Origin: Escherichia phage vB_EcoM_G2248
Direction: 5' to 3' (one strand)
Sequence record: MK327932.1
Length of the DNA stretch: 64,000 bases
Of this stretch, positions 16,109 through 38,169 are shown one piece after another (the first letter of the stretch is position 1; each line of letters opens with the position of its first letter). The translations under genes were made by a program, and so were the position numbers. The notes under the pieces were generated by a model. The model worked only from the letters and a program-made list of their open reading frames with translations, was not told the DNA's origin and did no database searches.

Positions 16109-16137
16109 ATTATAGGGGATCGGTGACCCCCTGTCAA
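16109..16137 (-). promoter_or_regulatory. sigma70-type early promoter cassette (example)
   Basis: Minus strand TTGACA (16132-16137), 17-nt palindromic spacer GGGGGTCACCGATCCCC, TATAAT (16109-16114), then conserved leader with GGAGAA RBS. Confidence 0.7.
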
Positions 16138-21523: not shown

Positions 21524-21553
21524 ATTATAGGGGATCTCCCGATCCCCTGTCAA
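21524..21553 (-). promoter_or_regulatory. sigma70-type early promoter cassette (example)
   Basis: Minus strand TTGACA-GGGGATCGGGAGATCCCC-TATAAT, then leader ...GGAGAATCAAAA-ATG. Confidence 0.7.
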
Positions 21554-22875: not shown

Positions 22876-22948
22876 GTTTGATTCTCCTAGTTCGTTTCGG
22901 TATGTGTGTATTATAGGGGAGTTTAACCTCACCTGTCAACAACTTTTT

Positions 22949-31806: not shown

Positions 31807-32025
31807 CTACTTTTTAATGACAAGTTCGAATTTTGCTACCTTGCGTCCTCGTTTATTGAAAGCAACCCACGGACGATTTTCAATGTAGAACAATTCTTCG
31901 CCAATAATGAATACTGGCTGATTGTAAAGGCGACCCATCAGGTCACGCTGGCGAATGGTAGTAGATTCGTATACTTCGCCTACTACAAAGTGCTTGCTGA
32001 TAGAGTCGGTGCAAGTAAATTTCAT
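31807..32025 (-). CDS. hypothetical protein
   Basis: 72 aa, own promoter cassette. Confidence 0.5.
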   Translation of the reverse strand: MKFTCTDSISKHFVVGEVYESTTIRQRDLMGRLYNQPVFIIGEELFYIENRPWVAFNKRGRKVAKFELVIKK

Positions 32026-32411: not shown

Positions 32412-32888
32412 TTAATCATGACCGTGATTTGCAATATCCGCTCGCGTCTTATCTTTGTGATTTCCTACGTCAAAGACACGATAACCATTTTCACGCAAAA
32501 CTTTAATCACTTCTGGGTTATCCTCAAAGACTCCGACAACTTCATCTTTATCAAAGGATTTAATTACCTCTAATTTGATGTGATAGTCTTTACGGGAATC
32601 GGTACGGCCTCTCATAAAGATTTTATCAAAACACACCCCGTTAGAAATTAACCAATCAATTGTTTCCATGTAAGCATGTGAACTTCGTCCGGTGAGGATG
32701 TAAATCAAATGCCCGTTGTCGGAAAGAGCATTAATAACACGAATTACATCGTAAATGGGGGAATCTCCCCCACATGCTTTGTTATATTCGATCCATGACT
32801 CGACTTTATCAAGATTTTCGGTTGGCATCTTTGCTAGTCGATGCGTTGGATCTGTGATCGTAAAATCTAAATCGACAAAATATATCAT
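32412..32888 (-). CDS. HAD-superfamily phosphatase-like protein
   Basis: N-terminal DLDFT (DxDxT) motif at residues 6-10; coupled to nrdB. Confidence 0.55.
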   Translation of the reverse strand: MIYFVDLDFTITDPTHRLAKMPTENLDKVESWIEYNKACGGDSPIYDVIRVINALSDNGHLIYILTGRSSHAYMETIDWLISNGVCFDKIFMRGRTDSRKDYHIKLEVIKSFDKDEVVGVFEDNPEVIKVLRENGYRVFDVGNHKDKTRADIANHGHD

Positions 32889-34045
32889 AGATATTTCCCG
32901 AATCGGTTGTAGTCGTCGTCTGTTAAATCGGTATTAACCTGAGATACCAGATACATGATCTCTACTTCTTGCGCCGCGTTTTGAACTTCGTCAGAGTTTA
33001 ACCACTTACGCATCCACGGTAAAGGATGACGACGAACACTAAACGGGCTTTTCAGTCCGGCAGCACGCATACGGGAATCTGCCAGGTATTCTACATAGGT
33101 TTTCAGAATTTCCGGTGACAGGTTAGGAATTGCCCCCATTGCGAATAAGTGATCTACCCATTCTTTTTCTTGCTCGACAACATCCAGAAAGATTTTCGTT
33201 GCTTCGCCTTCAAGTTCTTCCGCAATCTGTTTCCACTCATCACCATCAGCCCCCGTTTGCCATTGACGAATAATGTATTGTGTGCCTTTTAAGTGAAGTT
33301 GTTCATCACGCGCAATAAATTTCATGATCTTCGCGTTACCTTCCAGTAAACCACGTTCGGCAAAGCTGAAAGTACATGCAAAGGACACATAAAAACGGAT
33401 TGCTTCCAGTGCATTTACGCAGTGTGCACACAGATAAATCGAAGCCATCAGATCTCGTTTTGTATCTTCAAAAAATCTTCTTGCATCATCTAATTCTGTC
33501 TGATCGTCTCGTTCTTCCCAATAGCGGAGATCTTCTTTTGCATTCTCATACTTACGAATCCAATAGAGAACATCATCATAATATTGCCCGATAGATTCCG
33601 CTCGCTTCATGATAGCAGGGTTATCGATGATCTGGTCGAACTCACTAGCCGGATCAATGAAACAGTTACGCATAATGTGTGTATAGCTTCGGCTATGAAT
33701 CGTTTCGCTGAATGTCCATGTTTGCAACCATGTATCAAGAGTCGGATCAGATACAATTGGACCAAATGCTGCGGACGGTGCGCGACCTTGAATAGAATCA
33801 AGTAATGTCTGATACTTCAAGTTTTCGGTAAAGAAACGCTTTTCAACGTCACCCATATTAAGATATTGAATACGGTCGGTTGCAAGTGAAATCTCTTCTG
33901 GACGCCAGAAAAATGACAATTGCTTTTCGATCAGTTCTTCAAATACTTGATGACGCTGAATATCATAGCGAGCGATACCCAACCCACTACCCAGAAACAT
34001 TGGTTCGTTCATAATATCAACATGTTCGCGGTTAAATACGCTCAT
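32885..34045 (-). CDS. nrdB: ribonucleotide reductase class Ia beta subunit
   Basis: 386 aa; diiron-carboxylate R2 features; uninterrupted ORF. Confidence 0.9.
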   Translation of the reverse strand: MSVFNREHVDIMNEPMFLGSGLGIARYDIQRHQVFEELIEKQLSFFWRPEEISLATDRIQYLNMGDVEKRFFTENLKYQTLLDSIQGRAPSAAFGPIVSDPTLDTWLQTWTFSETIHSRSYTHIMRNCFIDPASEFDQIIDNPAIMKRAESIGQYYDDVLYWIRKYENAKEDLRYWEERDDQTELDDARRFFEDTKRDLMASIYLCAHCVNALEAIRFYVSFACTFSFAERGLLEGNAKIMKFIARDEQLHLKGTQYIIRQWQTGADGDEWKQIAEELEGEATKIFLDVVEQEKEWVDHLFAMGAIPNLSPEILKTYVEYLADSRMRAAGLKSPFSVRRHPLPWMRKWLNSDEVQNAAQEVEIMYLVSQVNTDLTDDDYNRFGKYL

Positions 34046-34060
34046 TAATTCACCTCACTG

Positions 34061-34228
34061 TCACTTTTTAACACAAAAGAACTTAGTATTTCTGTTAACT
34101 TCGCTATCCTGCTGCAATTCCTGCACAGCTTCAAAACAATTTTGATGTGATGAAAACTCTACGCTGGTAACAGTTCCTTTATTATATAATCCTACGCTAA
34201 CGGAAAGCAATAACCATATTGTAGCCAT
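34061..34228 (-). CDS. small protein with hydrophobic N-terminus (55 aa, not in track), paralogue of 34228..34401
   Basis: MATIWLLLSVSVGLYNKGTVTSVEFSS...; TAATG overlap with next gene. Confidence 0.45.
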   Translation of the reverse strand: MATIWLLLSVSVGLYNKGTVTSVEFSSHQNCFEAVQELQQDSEVNRNTKFFCVKK

Positions 34229-34401
34229 TAGTTCACCTTCTGCTTTTCAACACAGTACAGATTCATAAAGCGTTTATTGTCTTCGCGGATAATCTCGCGA
34301 GCTTTAACGCAATCCTGCTTTGTTGCAAATTCAATGCTTGACATATTTCCGTAATTATACATTGAATTGCTGATTGCAATCAATAACCATACAGTAGCCA
34401 T
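34228..34401 (-). CDS. small protein with hydrophobic N-terminus (57 aa, not in track)
   Basis: MATVWLLIAISNSMYNYGNMSSIEFAT...; TAATG overlaps on both sides. Confidence 0.45.
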   Translation of the reverse strand: MATVWLLIAISNSMYNYGNMSSIEFATKQDCVKAREIIREDNKRFMNLYCVEKQKVN

Positions 34402-34568
34402 TATCCGACAACCTCAAAACATTTATCATCAGGAAGAATCGCCCATTCTACGCCATATTCATCCTCAACGTAGTAGCAAGCCCCATCATGTCGAGCATCA
34501 TATACATCACCGACAACAAAGCTATCAGCTAGCTCAAAATCTACAGCAACACATTTTAATTTGGTCAT
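34401..34568 (-). CDS. hypothetical small protein
   Basis: Start moved to MTKLKCVAVDF (RBS GAGGA); 55 aa. Confidence 0.45.
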   Translation of the reverse strand: MTKLKCVAVDFELADSFVVGDVYDARHDGACYYVEDEYGVEWAILPDDKCFEVVG

Positions 34569-34636
34569 AATAAAATCCTCACTTGTTTTTGATGGTTGTA
34601 TTATAGCGGGGATTTCTCCCCGCGTCAACACTTATT

Positions 34637-36880
34637 TTACAGCTTGCAAGATGAGCACTCGCTAGCGTCTTCTGTACCATCTGCACCGTCGCGAACGTTC
34701 GCATAATACAGGGTTTTCAGACCGTAATGTTGAGCGAACAACATATCATCTAACACATCAGCAATATCGACTTTACCAGTCTTATAAGTGCTTGGATCAT
34801 AGGATGTATTGGAACTAATCGCCTGATCTACAAACTTCTGCATGATCGCTGCCAGTGTCAGATAGGGCTTGTTACCTTTCTTGATCAGTGTCCAAAGCAG
34901 GTCAATAACATCAGCATTATTCTCTACGTTCGGAATAACCTGATTAAATTGCCCTTCTTTCGATCCTTTAACCGATACAATCCCGCGAGGCGGTTCAATA
35001 CCGTTTGTGCTGTTAGACACCTGAGAAGATGACTCACAGGGCATCAGCGCCGAAAGCGTACTGTTACGAATGCCATATTTTTTCAGGTCTTCGCGCAGTT
35101 CTTCCCAATCCATCTCATACACCGGATCAACCAGTTCATCTACTGTCTTTTTGTACCAGTCGATAGGAAGTTCACCGCGACCATAGCGTGTTTCGTGCAT
35201 CAGTTCGCAAGCACCCTTCTCTTTAGCCAGTCGCACACTAGCCTTAATCAGAGCATATTGCAAGCGTTCAAACGTTTTATGCGTAAACTCGTTAGCGTCT
35301 TCATATGTGAAGAAATTATCTGCTAGATATGATGCAAAGTTAGTAACACCAACACCCAGAGAGCGACGTTTTTTGGCTGTCAGAGCTTGTTCTACAGGAT
35401 AATCCTGATAATCTAACAGGTTGTCAAGTGCACGCACCATAACCATAGCAATGCGTTCTACTTCTTCCATATTTTCGATATCGAAATTACCTAAAACATA
35501 TGCTGCCAAAGTACATAGGCTAATTTCTGAATCATCACGACCCATCGGTTTTGTTGGCAGAGCAATTTCACAACACAGGTTAGATTGTTTAATCGGTGCT
35601 ACATTACGAATAAACGCCCCGTGATTGTTCATGTTGTCTGTGAACGCTGGATAGATTCGACCAGTGTTAAAACGTTCAATTGCCACCGCTAAAAACAGGT
35701 CTTCGGCTTTAACACGAGTTTTACGAACACTCGGATCTTTTTCCAGTTTTTCGTAAAGCTGGCGGAAACCTTCCTCATCTCGGAAGTACAGATCCCACAA
35801 CAAGCCACCCGCAACATCTGGACTAAACAGAGTAATGTAATCCCGTTTAAGGAATCGCTCTACCATCAGGTTATTAATCTGTACGCCGTAATCAAGATGA
35901 CGAATGCGGTTATCTTCCACCCCCTTATTGTTCTTTAACACAATCAGACTTTCAAACTCTAAATGCCACATTGGGTAATAGAGTGTCGCTGCCCCGCCAC
36001 GAATACCGCCTTGTGAGCATGACTTAACGGCAGTCTGAAAATGTTTCCAGAATGGGATAACGCCAGTATGACGAACTTCACCATGCCCGATCTTAGATCC
36101 TTCCGCGCGAATCATACCAGCATTGATACCGATACCAGCACGCTTGCTAATATACTTGATGATTGCATTTGCTGTTTCGTTGATGCCCGGCAATGAGTCA
36201 TCACTTTCAATCACCACACACGAACTAAATTGGCGTGTTGGGGTACGCACACCTGCCATAATCGGAGTAGGCAGAGAGATTTGCTTATTCGCAACAGCAT
36301 TATAAAAATCAATCACATGTTCAAGTCGATTTTCTGTCTCTTCTTGATGCAAGCACATACCGATCAGCATATACGCAAATTGCGGTGTTTCGATTATTTT
36401 CTTAGTGCTGCGATCCTGAACAAGATATTTCTCTTTTAACTGCATCGCACCAGCATAGGTCATTTTAAAATCAAGTTTATGGTCGATGAATTTCTCCAGA
36501 TATTCCACTTCTTCACGGGAATACTTTTGCAGAATTTCGCGATCATATTTTCCGGTTGCAATATTACTCTCAATATGGCTGTAAAAATCAATCGGTTGGA
36601 ATTGACCGTATACTGATTTGCGAAGCGCGAACATTGCAAGGTTACTTGCTACATATTGATAATCGGGTGTTTCTACAGTGATGTTATCTGCGGCGACCTT
36701 AATCAATACTTTCTGGATATCATTGGTAGACATACCTTCTGTCAGAAGTGGTTCAACCATATCAAACAATTCATATGGATCAACGTTATGACCTTCGGCT
36801 GCCGCTTCCAGAATTTTCATTACTTTTTCTTTTTCAAACGGAACAGTCAGACCGGAAGACTTAACAACATTTTTAATCAT
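34637..36880 (-). CDS. nrdA: ribonucleotide reductase class Ia alpha subunit
   Basis: 747 aa; ATP-cone N-terminus, catalytic Cys-containing core, C-terminal CSSCKL-type tail. Confidence 0.9.
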   Translation of the reverse strand: MIKNVVKSSGLTVPFEKEKVMKILEAAAEGHNVDPYELFDMVEPLLTEGMSTNDIQKVLIKVAADNITVETPDYQYVASNLAMFALRKSVYGQFQPIDFYSHIESNIATGKYDREILQKYSREEVEYLEKFIDHKLDFKMTYAGAMQLKEKYLVQDRSTKKIIETPQFAYMLIGMCLHQEETENRLEHVIDFYNAVANKQISLPTPIMAGVRTPTRQFSSCVVIESDDSLPGINETANAIIKYISKRAGIGINAGMIRAEGSKIGHGEVRHTGVIPFWKHFQTAVKSCSQGGIRGGAATLYYPMWHLEFESLIVLKNNKGVEDNRIRHLDYGVQINNLMVERFLKRDYITLFSPDVAGGLLWDLYFRDEEGFRQLYEKLEKDPSVRKTRVKAEDLFLAVAIERFNTGRIYPAFTDNMNNHGAFIRNVAPIKQSNLCCEIALPTKPMGRDDSEISLCTLAAYVLGNFDIENMEEVERIAMVMVRALDNLLDYQDYPVEQALTAKKRRSLGVGVTNFASYLADNFFTYEDANEFTHKTFERLQYALIKASVRLAKEKGACELMHETRYGRGELPIDWYKKTVDELVDPVYEMDWEELREDLKKYGIRNSTLSALMPCESSSQVSNSTNGIEPPRGIVSVKGSKEGQFNQVIPNVENNADVIDLLWTLIKKGNKPYLTLAAIMQKFVDQAISSNTSYDPSTYKTGKVDIADVLDDMLFAQHYGLKTLYYANVRDGADGTEDASECSSCKL

Positions 36881-36948: not shown

Positions 36949-38169
36949 TTATACTGCCATTTGAGCGGTGATTGCTGGATGGCTTTGATAGTTGTGAATT
37001 TTAAAGTCTTTCGGAGTCTTTGTCAATACCTCATCTAAAGATTTAAATTCCGGCAACTCAATTGTTGGTTTATCAAACGGAACACGGCTTAACTGTTCCA
37101 TAACTTGATCAAAATGGTTTTTGTAAATGTGAGTATCTCCACCAGAGAAAATCAGTTCTCCTACCTCAAGATCACACATTTTCGCTATGATGTGAGTTAA
37201 CAGCGCATAGCTGGCGACGTTAAAGGGCAAGCCCAAAAAGCTGTCTACGCTTCGCTGAAACCACATACAAGACAGTTTACCTTCATTGACGTAGAATTGC
37301 ACGAAAGGATGACATACACCTAATACAGCATTATGTGTTCCTTGTACGTTCCATGAGTCAATAATGATCCGGCGATCCGTTGGATTGTTTTTAATTTGTT
37401 CAATCACGTTTTGTAACTGGTCTTCCCAAATCTTCTGGCGATAGACATATTCTTCATCGTCTTTAGGGCTTGATGTGTCTACGTCCATACTAACAAAGAT
37501 CGTGGTATCCGGTGCTAAAATGTCACCGCCCAGATATTCATTATCAAGCAGATAACCGAAATAACCATCATCTACCCATTCCTGGAATCCCCACAAGCAA
37601 TATGCATCATTAACAAAATTAGATTGAGTCTTCCAGTGGTCTGCTACCAGAATATAATCAAACTCTTCATAACGCATACCACGCCAGATAGCACATAAAC
37701 GGTCTTCTGTGTCGTTGGTTGGTGTAAAGTCTTCTACCCACGGGTGCTTAAATGTATGTGTATATTTGCTCTTAACGCGCTTAATTTTGATTTCACCATG
37801 TGGATGAATCGGTTTTCGTCGCCACGCCATACCATACATATTGCCGACATTATAACCATTGAATCGCAAGGGATTCTTTTCTTTCATATCAAGACAGTTG
37901 CCGCGCCAAATATCAAAGGCTTCCTCGTCAAACTTGCCGCGTGTAATTTCCTGTAAGCGACGGCGGTCAAGTGATCCCTCCATAAACCATAGCAATTCGC
38001 CAATTACAGAGGCTGTAGCCATCTTTTTAGTGGTCAGTAATGGGAAACCCTTGCTTAAATCAATTCGCATCTCTGCGCCGAATTTAGAGAGCGTACCTAC
38101 CCCCGTGCGGTCTTCACGAGGACAGCCATTATCAAGAACATCACGCAATAGTTTCAAATATTCTTTCAT
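36949..38169 (-). CDS. td: thymidylate synthase with a ~125-aa in-frame insertion
   Basis: Conserved TS blocks (DRTGVGT, catalytic-Cys region GVCHPFVQFY, RSVDSFLGLPFN) interrupted between WRRKP and DRRIIIDSWN. Confidence 0.85.
   Translation of the reverse strand: MKEYLKLLRDVLDNGCPREDRTGVGTLSKFGAEMRIDLSKGFPLLTTKKMATASVIGELLWFMEGSLDRRRLQEITRGKFDEEAFDIWRGNCLDMKEKNPLRFNGYNVGNMYGMAWRRKPIHPHGEIKIKRVKSKYTHTFKHPWVEDFTPTNDTEDRLCAIWRGMRYEEFDYILVADHWKTQSNFVNDAYCLWGFQEWVDDGYFGYLLDNEYLGGDILAPDTTIFVSMDVDTSSPKDDEEYVYRQKIWEDQLQNVIEQIKNNPTDRRIIIDSWNVQGTHNAVLGVCHPFVQFYVNEGKLSCMWFQRSVDSFLGLPFNVASYALLTHIIAKMCDLEVGELIFSGGDTHIYKNHFDQVMEQLSRVPFDKPTIELPEFKSLDEVLTKTPKDFKIHNYQSHPAITAQMAV

Follow-up and report, generated by a model that had tools for sequence, protein, structure and literature searches.

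Three small genes behind a PeSL promoter motif in the nrdA-nrdB gap of a Krischvirus

The closest described counterparts of the locus analyzed here are the cassettes of RB49 and Phi1 in which an early promoter with a stem-loop (PeSL) is followed by ORFans (Arbiol et al. 2010, PMC2839356; Comeau et al. 2014, PMC4122927). The PeSL marks shuffled ORFan cassettes in these phages (PMC2839356), whereas the nrdA-nrdB site is absent from the main text of both papers. In T4-type phages, small or mobile nonessential genes lie at the td/nrdA/nrdB junctions, and in T4 itself mobE and nrdB.1 occupy the nrdA-nrdB gap. T4-type phages also encode small early envelope proteins such as Imm and Sp, which have true transmembrane (TM) segments or a cleavable signal peptide. 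A precedent of another kind is YdfD, the lysis protein of the Qin prophage, which is about 60 aa long and works in the cytoplasm, where it binds and inhibits IspG; its N-terminus is hydrophobic, and it contains two conserved cysteines (PMC8835842).

The locus and its promoter motif

The stretch of DNA analyzed (the window) comprises 64,000 nucleotides of Escherichia phage vB_EcoM_G2248 (MK327932.1), a Krischvirus, that is, an RB49/Phi1-like T4-type phage. Three overlapping small ORFs of 55, 57, and 55 aa lie on its minus strand between nrdB and nrdA, at the coordinates given for them in an earlier note on this sequence. In the direction of transcription, the features are as follows.

34637..36880, minus strand: nrdA, 747 aa, the neighbor upstream of the three ORFs
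34600..34628, minus strand: PeSL, early sigma-70-type promoter TTGACG-N17-TATAAT, 11/12 consensus match
34401..34568, minus strand: ORF3, 55 aa from ATG; RB49ORF233c orthologue; PHROG 16302
34228..34401, minus strand: ORF2, 57 aa; RB49ORF232c orthologue; PHROG 5579; paralogue of ORF1
34061..34228, minus strand: ORF1, 55 aa; RB49ORF231c orthologue; PHROG 5579; promoter-distal paralogue
32885..34045, minus strand: nrdB, 386 aa, the neighbor downstream of the three ORFs

The three genes are already known, having been annotated as RB49ORF231c, RB49ORF232c, and RB49ORF233c, and three hypothetical proteins are annotated at this place in most of 58 Krischvirus records (more than 50 genomes). A search of the literature for these names and for transcriptomic studies of Krischvirus returned nothing relevant, and no paper found in it mentions these ORFs.

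The stop-start linkage reported by the earlier note is confirmed: the minus strand reads TAATG at each junction, where a single base (34228 and 34401, respectively) belongs to both codons, which supports translational coupling of the three small cistrons. Each ORF has its own Shine-Dalgarno sequence, which is AAGGTGA for ORF1 and, for ORF3, a GAGG located 8 nt before the ATG at 34568. The ORF list had extended ORF3 to a GTG at 34631, but this codon falls within the promoter, and the ATG at 34568 with its GAGG is therefore the credible start. The ATG of nrdB follows the ORF1 stop codon by 15 nt, and the gap between them holds a GAGGTGA Shine-Dalgarno.

The promoter has its -35 element at 34628-34623 and its -10 element at 34605-34600, and the spacer is filled by the stem-loop GCGGGGA-GAAA-TCCCCGC (34623-34606). 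The 72-nt intergenic RNA folds with -21.1 kcal/mol (z=-5.1), and exact TTGAC-N-TATAAT sites number 11 in the window, compared with an expectation of 0.53. The element is intergenic, it is followed by the Shine-Dalgarno sequence and ATG of an ORFan, and its site varies between close relatives; in these respects it matches the published PeSL definition (PMC2839356, PMC4122927). GEC-3S has an annotated promoter in the corresponding position, and an identical PeSL stands upstream of the single-copy family gene in L010 and on either side of a methyltransferase cassette in KMB43. Rfam recognized no RNA family between 33000 and 36000, and the search for an intrinsic terminator found none. Host RNA polymerase would most likely start at this sigma-70 promoter right after infection and transcribe ORF3, ORF2, ORF1, and nrdB in this order, so that nrdB is probably cotranscribed with the three small genes, while the TAATG overlaps would couple the translation of ORF3, ORF2, and ORF1. 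Compared with the cassettes described in RB49 and Phi1, this one comprises three cistrons, would read on into nrdB, and sits within a conserved nucleotide-metabolism block rather than in a large hyperplastic region.

The earlier note considered small genes in the ribonucleotide reductase (RNR) operon to be unexpected. This expectation does not hold, since the contents of the nrdA-nrdB gap are known to vary, as T4 with its own occupants illustrates, and the block stands behind a marker of shuffled cassettes (PMC2839356). Within Krischvirus, close relatives show insertions, deletions, and replacements at this locus, as in the RB49/Phi1 cassettes. In JSE, a NUMOD3 homing endonuclease replaces ORF1 and ORF2, and in G37-3 one paralogue copy is accompanied by an HNH-AP2 endonuclease, and ORF3 is broken. 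Homing endonucleases thus fill in these two phages the slot that mobile genes fill in T4. JSE, AV108, and FL15 have kept ORF3 and lost both paralogues; FL20 and G37-3 have a truncated ORF3; P0016 represents a chimera of ORF2 and ORF1; and KMB43 has a methyltransferase cassette in the gap, inserted between two identical PeSLs. The cassette is thus dispensable and the locus plastic. Homology of the small genes to T4 nrdA.1, nrdA.2, and nrdB.1 was rejected, the HMM and phmmer scores being at or below about 0 bits; nrdB.1 itself looks like an endonuclease remnant.

A sister lineage (74% nucleotide identity, 83% NrdB identity) has a single family gene directly upstream of nrdB, with its stop codon within the nrdB Shine-Dalgarno sequence. 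ORF1 and ORF2 probably arose by tandem duplication of one ancestral gene, and the sister lineage retains one copy in this position. The seeming insertion of membrane protein genes into the RNR operon turns out to be an accessory cassette of an ordinary kind, previously annotated, at a T4-type recombination hotspot. The finding is modest, and natural variants that lack genes of the cassette, such as JSE and G37-3, make functional testing easier.

Conservation and distribution of the three genes

The reading frames are kept in related phages, and the variable sites fall mainly in third codon positions (positions 1/2/3: 8/5/25 in ORF1, 2/0/12 in ORF2, and 6/1/14 in ORF3). For ORF1, dN/dS ranges from 0.06 to 0.7 and is at most 0.3 except in one near-identical pair with 4 differences; it is about 0-0.05 for ORF2 and 0.06-0.25 for ORF3. 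The ORF2 protein is nearly invariant across Krischvirus, with dN about 0 at dS values of 0.14-0.37. Judged by these substitution patterns, all three genes are under purifying selection (dN/dS about 0-0.3), and the earlier note's refuting case, in which the frames would not be conserved in related genomes, therefore fails. It might be argued that the ORFs are nonfunctional, either chance ORFs or decaying remnants that travel with the promoter, given that they are short and are missing or truncated in some relatives. We regard this as extremely improbable. The spurious-ORF reading was rejected on dN/dS, which is well below 1 for all three; the third-position bias and the invariance of the ORF2 protein speak against it as well, as do the Shine-Dalgarno sequence before each ORF, the homologues at 30-50% identity in unrelated phages, and a very confident fold prediction.

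ORF1 and ORF2 are paralogues, as the earlier note had recognized, with 38% identity and 75% positives (E=7e-17). Both match the PHROG 5579 profile over its full length (E=9.5e-24 and 6.8e-24; profile positions 1-52 of 52), and distant members match it also. At E<1e-3, the family has 68 representatives among 1.84 billion proteins, its members being about 55-65 aa long. The cysteines that had been described as conserved are the sole invariant columns of a 45-sequence family alignment, and 86 of 91 family members contain exactly two. PHROG 5579 is a sparse, widely scattered phage family whose genes occupy early or accessory parts of the genome in phages that are not related to each other. Outside the RNR locus, they are found in the td-frd gap, in the DegT-NeuB gap, downstream of glycosyltransferases, in lambdoid ERF/SSB/NinB regions, and in AAA_24/DUF669/helicase modules. 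Scattered early-gene families like this one form a pool that yields antidefense and host-takeover factors.

A tblastn search of cultured phages with the distant member P0038 found Krischvirus only. A degenerate DNA motif search yielded 4 IMG/VR loci and 97 bacterial-genome matches; none of the 97 was a family member by HMM, and a search of this stringency thus gives no sign of prophage copies. With the three proteins as queries, Pfam, NCBIfam, and PADLOC yielded nothing significant, a PDB sequence search gave no match, and no further paralogues were found elsewhere in the 64-kb window.

ORF3 has no relationship to ORF1 and ORF2. Its protein is acidic, with a net charge of -9, matches PHROG 16302 over its full length (E=2.3e-41; profile positions 1-55 of 55), and is confined to Krischvirus. 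It is a separate, very acidic, Krischvirus-only ORFan carried in the same cassette. Within the window, it shows a nonsignificant resemblance to the ORF at 31807-32025.

Predicted fold and location of the paralogues

With the diverse 45-sequence alignment, AlphaFold2 predicted the structure of ORF1 at a mean pLDDT of 96.1 and a pTM of 0.76; with a shallow alignment the pLDDT was 77, and the topology was unchanged. The model is a compact beta-beta-alpha-alpha-beta fold in which a three-stranded sheet packs on two helices. Residues 5-11 form a beta-strand of the sheet, and the block of the first 10 residues has a pLDDT of 93. C31 opens helix 1 and C52 lies in the last strand, and the two cysteines are probably adjacent to each other. 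PHROG 5579 is thereby defined, as a by-product of this analysis, as a real family with a confident, compact predicted fold that has no significant PDB match. Foldseek searches of the PDB with the low- and high-confidence models gave nonsignificant best E values of 0.47-1.2 (ERH, PaaB, RB69 Dmd, and phi29 p56), and Foldseek against BFVD returned many uncharacterized phage proteins of 50-70 aa with TM scores of 0.7-0.84.

The hydrophobic N-termini of the two paralogues are present as first described, and they had been taken for a probable signal or TM segment. Exported or membrane-anchored proteins with a periplasmic disulfide, serving in superinfection immunity, exclusion, or envelope modification, would account for the 10-14 hydrophobic residues at the N-terminus and for an invariant cysteine pair such as is expected of a disulfide in an exported protein. 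They would also have a parallel in the small early envelope proteins of T4-type phages. The S-x-G (ORF1) and S-x-S (ORF2) that follow the hydrophobic run fit the -3/-1 rule of signal peptidase I, although they fit a conserved beta-turn of the model equally. Most of the evidence points the other way, and we consider this explanation unlikely. The best 19-residue Kyte-Doolittle window reaches 1.09 in ORF1 and 0.61 in ORF2 (family median, 0.98), compared with a TM threshold of 1.6 for the 19-residue mean and 2.24 for a T4 i-spanin control, and only 2 of 91 family members attain 1.6. The apolar run spans 11-14 residues even with G/S/T counted, whereas a TM core takes about 18-20, and a signal peptide here would be only about 13 residues long. 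Neither protein has Lys or Arg among its first six residues, and such a residue is present in 12 of the 91 members, which leaves 79 with no basic n-region. The would-be segment is a strand of the predicted sheet, the confidence of which rose with alignment depth, and its removal would leave a two-stranded remnant. The N-terminus is also among the best-conserved parts of the family: W5, L6/L7, S11, Y15, N16, and G18 are conserved among members that are 30-50% identical, a pattern that, in the alignment, is unlike that of signal peptides.

ORF1 and ORF2 are most likely small, soluble, folded proteins that are neither membrane-bound nor secreted. They resemble Imm and Sp in being small, nonessential phage proteins with presumably early expression, but their hydropathy and charge do not suit a TM segment or signal peptide, a globular structure is predicted for them, and PHROG and Pfam searches revealed no sequence similarity to Imm or Sp. 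The suggestion of an immunity- or exclusion-type factor found no evidence in its favor, the Pfam, NCBIfam, and PADLOC scans having returned no matches. The case is a warning not to make too much of a hydrophobic N-terminus when the ORF is very small.

Possible roles of the cassette

On balance, we lean toward the interpretation that the three ORFs are genuine, dispensable accessory genes that form a PeSL-driven early cassette in the nrdA-nrdB gap, and that the two paralogues are cytoplasmic, host-directed binders. ORF1 and ORF2 would probably stay in the cytoplasm as homodimers or as an ORF1/ORF2 heterodimer and may bind a protein of the host or of the phage soon after infection begins, acting as host-takeover or counterdefense factors outside ribonucleotide reduction. 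Because Foldseek found no significant PDB match, a binding or inhibitory role is proposed here by analogy, with YdfD as the precedent (PMC8835842), and not by homology.

The position of the genes could instead suggest that ORF1 and ORF2 are accessory factors of RNR or of the dNTP-synthesis complex, or leader cistrons that set nrdB translation. A dimer with 2+2 cysteines might, for example, hold a metal, an Fe-S cluster, or a dithiol that serves the assembly or maintenance of the NrdB cofactor, in the manner of YfaE in the nrdAB-yfaE operon of E. coli. The invariant cysteine pair would suit such a function, the spot directly upstream of nrdB is retained in the sister lineage, and another family member, between td and frd, adjoins a glutaredoxin gene. 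However, most other family members have no nucleotide-metabolism genes nearby, neither paralogue is needed for viability in JSE, AV108, and FL15, and the T4 gap contains unrelated genes. The proteins contain no CxxC or ferredoxin-like motif, and the small protein of the sister lineage diverges much faster than NrdB (49% versus 83% identity). We therefore find a role in RNR improbable. A more specific version of the interpretation that we prefer is that ORF1 and ORF2 are remote members of DUF1482 that, like YdfD, bind and inhibit an Fe-S enzyme of the host, for example IspG, and have a part in host shut-off or lysis; this has some chance of being correct but is doubtful. The two groups agree in size (about 60 aa), in their phage or prophage origin, and in layout, with a hydrophobic N-terminal run, a strand-like segment, and a helix opened by T/S-x-x-x-C, and the second cysteine follows the first by 13-20 residues, in comparable positions. 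The genes lie among early accessory genes in both, and YdfD acts in the cytoplasm on a host enzyme. When the family was aligned by hhalign with YdfD/YebW, represented by a shallow DUF1482 alignment, both cysteines fell in register, with a probability of 7.9%, a score of 17.3, and P=0.004, a P-value that is optimistic because the candidate was picked by visual resemblance. The score exceeds those of the controls (maximum of 14.3 for 60 column-shuffled alignments; 8.7 for the reversed one), and HMM cross-scores between the family and DUF1482 were about +10 bits in both directions. The hhalign probability is nonetheless low, falling to 1.8% against YebW alone, and reciprocal matches are lacking: ORF1 and ORF2 match neither PF07358 nor PHROG 1092, YdfD and YebW do not match PHROG 5579, and PF07358 matched 1 of 45 family members, at E=0.11. 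The C-terminal tails differ, and the N-terminus has a higher hydrophobicity in DUF1482 (Kyte-Doolittle 2.0 in YdfD). In YdfD, moreover, IspG binding does not require the cysteines (PMC8835842). Taken as a whole, the comparison indicates a weak similarity in sequence between PHROG 5579 proteins and YdfD/DUF1482.

Going beyond the general interpretation of cytoplasmic binders, one may speculate that PHROG 5579 is an unrecognized, structurally distinct branch of YdfD/YebW (DUF1482), consisting of small cytoplasmic dimers in which the paired cysteines help to form a common metal or redox site and which bind and silence a host metalloenzyme early in infection. This is a long shot. If it were true, the Krischvirus pair would be a heterodimer coexpressed with the di-iron NrdB of the phage, and the supply of phage RNR might be linked to the shutdown of an iron or Fe-S enzyme of the host.

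A minor observation concerns gene order. Three independent contexts of the family lie between paired enzymes of the same pathway (NrdA/NrdB, Td/Frd, and DegT/NeuB), and such a placement might hint at a metabolic role, which would speak against the interpretation that we prefer.

The small genes between nrdA and nrdB

The observation of three small genes between nrdB and nrdA, made in the earlier note from sequence only, is confirmed; its interpretation, namely that small membrane proteins embedded in the RNR operon are unexpected and could be immunity- or exclusion-type factors, finds little support. What lies here is an accessory cassette of an ordinary kind that had been annotated before, presumably driven by a PeSL (promoter-early stem-loop) and located in a known variable slot. 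The minus strand carries every gene in this part of the window.

Genes of the nrdA-nrdB block, from upstream to downstream
34637-36880, minus strand: nrdA, upstream neighbour of the small-ORF block
34401-34568, minus strand: ORF3, 55 aa, starting MTKLKCV
34228-34401, minus strand: ORF2, 57 aa, starting MATVWLLIAIS
34061-34228, minus strand: ORF1, 55 aa, starting MATIWLLLSVS
32885-34045, minus strand: nrdB, downstream neighbour of the small-ORF block

Both junctions between the small ORFs read TAATG, in which the stop codon and the next start codon have one base in common. A Shine-Dalgarno sequence precedes every small ORF (GAGG, GAGG and AAGGTGA), and the 15 nt between ORF1 and nrdB contain GAGGTGA. 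Automatic ORF calling pushes the ORF3 start out to GTG 34631, but ATG 34568 is the credible start, because GTG 34631 would fall within the promoter. As had been proposed, ORF1 is a paralogue of ORF2 (38% identity, E=7e-17), and both match PHROG 5579 (~1e-24), whereas ORF3 matches PHROG 16302 (2e-41) and showed no relationship when compared with ORF1 and ORF2.

The three ORFs are real genes. Their frames are kept among eight related loci with low dN/dS, the reverse of the missing conservation that would speak against them. The single higher value for ORF1, 0.73 (window versus GEC-3S), is based on just four differences, and the ORF2 protein is nearly invariant at dS up to 0.37.

Variable sites at codon positions 1/2/3 and Nei-Gojobori dN/dS, window versus eight related loci
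ORF1: 8/5/25; dN/dS 0.06-0.3 in most pairs
ORF2: 2/0/12; dN/dS about 0-0.05
ORF3: 6/1/14; dN/dS 0.06-0.25

The region is shared at 96-98% identity by RB49, Phi1 and around 50 further genomes of Krischvirus, a group of T4-type coliphages. The three ORFs are not new as genes, since they had already been annotated in RB49 (RB49ORF231c, 232c and 233c, all "hypothetical protein") and in most related Krischvirus records; the literature searched contained no mention of them.

Two neighbouring genes are also of note. The td gene (thymidylate synthase; 36949-38169, minus strand) encodes 406 aa, and Pfam Thymidylat_synt matches the product in two stretches. As the second opens with residue 249 aligned to profile position 109, some 130 aa appear to have been inserted in frame compared with canonical Td. 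Similarly long products occur in RB49 (410 aa) and in a sister lineage, L010 (412 aa). Immediately past nrdB and overlapping its stop codon, a 158-aa gene (32412-32888, minus strand) encodes a phosphatase domain of HAD/PNKP type (Pfam HAD_PNKP, 2.9e-13) that lacks the kinase part.

The PeSL and the variable slot

The 68 nt separating nrdA from ORF3 hold TTGACG-N17-TATAAT (34600-34628, minus strand; 11/12 consensus match), the spacer of which is occupied by the hairpin GCGGGGA-GAAA-TCCCCGC; the folding energy of the intergenic RNA is -21.1 kcal/mol (z=-5.1). In GEC-3S, a promoter had been annotated at this position. This near-consensus sigma-70 promoter with a G/C stem-loop fits the PeSL of RB49 and Phi1, described as a near-perfect sigma-70 promoter with a G(n)-loop-C(n) stem-loop. 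Reported roles of PeSLs are strong early promotion, termination or attenuation of transcription, and the shuffling of ORFan cassettes (PMC2839356, PMC4122927). The element would place the three ORFs and nrdB under early transcription. Exact TTGAC-N-TATAAT sites number 11 in the window versus 0.53 expected, several with a GGGG/CCCC spacer hairpin. Perfect TTGACA...TATAAT promoters with a G-rich/C-rich spacer hairpin at 16109-16137, 21524-21553 and 22910-22939 (all minus strand) are presumably further PeSLs. Another promoter-like site inside the 5' part of ORF2 (34354-34383, minus strand; TTGATT-18-TATAAT, 10/12) may be a chance match.

The contents of the slot vary among relatives. In KMB43 and a metagenomic relative (L013), a C5-cytosine methyltransferase gene lies between nrdA and ORF3; in KMB43 it is flanked on both sides by the same PeSL sequence, as the cassette model predicts. 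The block match is limited to the ORF3 and PeSL part in JSE, AV108 and FL15, and a NUMOD3 homing endonuclease replaces ORF1 and ORF2 in JSE. G37-3 retains a single ORF1-like copy, with an HNH-AP2 endonuclease beside nrdB and a broken ORF3, and the block of FL20 is shortened much as in G37-3. P0016, a protein from metagenomic data, is a chimera of ORF2 and ORF1. T4 carries mobE and nrdB.1 in the nrdA-nrdB gap, and nrdA.1 and nrdA.2 beyond nrdA; no relationship of these four genes to the present ORFs was found. The locus is a hotspot and the three ORFs are dispensable. As T4 and the Krischvirus relatives carry such varied insertions, small non-RNR genes are to be expected at this junction in T4-type phages, contrary to the earlier view of them as unexpected.

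ORF3 is structurally unstable across relatives: a 7-aa internal tandem duplication extends it to 62 aa in GEC-3S (L009 656-844), and it is truncated to 30-40 aa in FL20, G37-3 and some metagenomic contigs (proteins P0025-P0028 are among the variants). The ORF1 counterpart of L013 (3001-3168) differs from window 34061-34228 with dS ~1.0, while dS is ~0.3 for the neighbouring ORF2 and ORF3, which suggests a mosaic or gene-conversion tract limited to ORF1, possibly tied to endonuclease activity beside nrdB.

The metagenomic L010 lineage is 74% identical to Krischvirus at the nucleotide level, and its NrdB is 83% identical. It carries an identical PeSL, one PHROG 5579 gene (49% identity to ORF1), the stop codon of which lies within the nrdB Shine-Dalgarno, and then nrdB. 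Judging from this order, the ancestral unit was probably a PeSL and a single gene followed by nrdB, to which the tandem duplication and ORF3 were added in Krischvirus. In L010 (1253-4440), a 237-aa homing-endonuclease-like gene splits nrdA into ORFs of 476 and 324 aa, resembling the "genes in pieces" RNR reported for Aeromonas phage Aeh1.

The PHROG 5579 family

Word-seeded searches returned close relatives only, and a profile search through all 1.84 billion representatives gave 68 at E<1e-3, nearly all of 50-70 aa. The family consensus is M..ITVWLLIxxSxGxYNxGTVTxxExFxxxxxC...(13-20)...CV. The earlier remark on conserved Cys holds: no alignment column other than those of two cysteines is invariant, and 86/91 members have exactly two Cys. 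Sequence searches of Pfam, NCBIfam, PADLOC and PDB gave no match.

AlphaFold2 gave pLDDT 77 with 18 near-identical sequences, and pLDDT 96.1 and pTM 0.76 with 45 diverse family members (five models, all >=92). The predicted topology was the same with both alignments: strand 5-11, strand 20-25, helix 28-39, helix 42-47 and strand 48-54. The N-termini of the paralogues are indeed hydrophobic, with an apolar run of 11-14 residues, and had been read as a probable signal or TM segment. Export of ORF1 and ORF2 by such a segment would suit the S-x-G/S following the apolar run, as a site for signal peptidase I, and the invariant Cys pair, as a periplasmic disulfide. However, AlphaFold2 confidently predicts a sheet strand for the N-terminus, the apolar run is short, and ORF1 and ORF2 have no basic n-region. 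In 19-residue Kyte-Doolittle windows, ORF1 peaks at 1.09 and ORF2 at 0.61, and the median maximum of the family is 0.98; just 2/91 members reach 1.6, compared with 2.24 for the T4 i-spanin control. Moreover, the N-terminal W5, L6/L7, S11, Y15, N16 and G18 rank among the most conserved residues of the family, unlike in signal peptides. We therefore consider export improbable. Most likely, the two paralogues are early proteins, compact and soluble, with a putative binding target in host or phage.

In the model, helix 1 has C31 in its first turn and strand 3 has C52 close to its end; the beta-alpha-beta crossover would bring the two cysteines close to each other. The apolar residues of strand 1 alternate and would point to both sheet faces, of which the helices could cover just one; this suggests dimerisation, possibly as an ORF1/ORF2 heterodimer.

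Foldseek with the predicted models found nothing significant in PDB, and in BFVD numerous uncharacterised 50-70-aa proteins of phages (TM 0.7-0.84). The family resembles YdfD, the lysis protein of the Qin prophage, and the related YebW (DUF1482) in size, hydrophobic N-terminus and two conserved Cys; the YdfD and YebW sequences were confirmed by exact look-up. Profile-profile comparison placed both Cys in register with a score of 17.3 (P=0.004, probability only 7.9%), above 60/60 column-shuffled controls (maximum 14.3). HMM cross-scores were ~10 bits and reciprocal PHROG and Pfam matches were absent; the resemblance is a hint, not membership. YdfD binds IspG, acting in the cytoplasm (PMC8835842), so that a role like the one proposed for ORF1 and ORF2 has a precedent.

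Genomic settings of other PHROG 5579 members
L017 (locus of a family member): between td and frd
L014 (locus of a family member): between DegT and NeuB sugar-synthesis genes
L016 (locus of a family member): downstream of glycosyltransferases
Lambdoid-type early region: near ERF, SSB and NinB/NinG
Replication modules: with AAA_24/DUF669/helicase
Long runs of small early ORFs

Since only the Krischvirus lineage and L017 have the gene amid nucleotide-metabolism genes, an RNR-specific role is unlikely. The family, with a confidently predicted fold that has no significant PDB match and an invariant Cys pair, is the main lead of this analysis, and the natural knockout phages can be used for testing its function. 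On a 176-kb viral contig (L006; 8984-9163 and 9423-9605, minus strand), one clear member lies ~260 nt from a 60-aa ORF with a hydrophobic N-terminus, two Cys and no significant profile match, perhaps a second copy that has diverged strongly.
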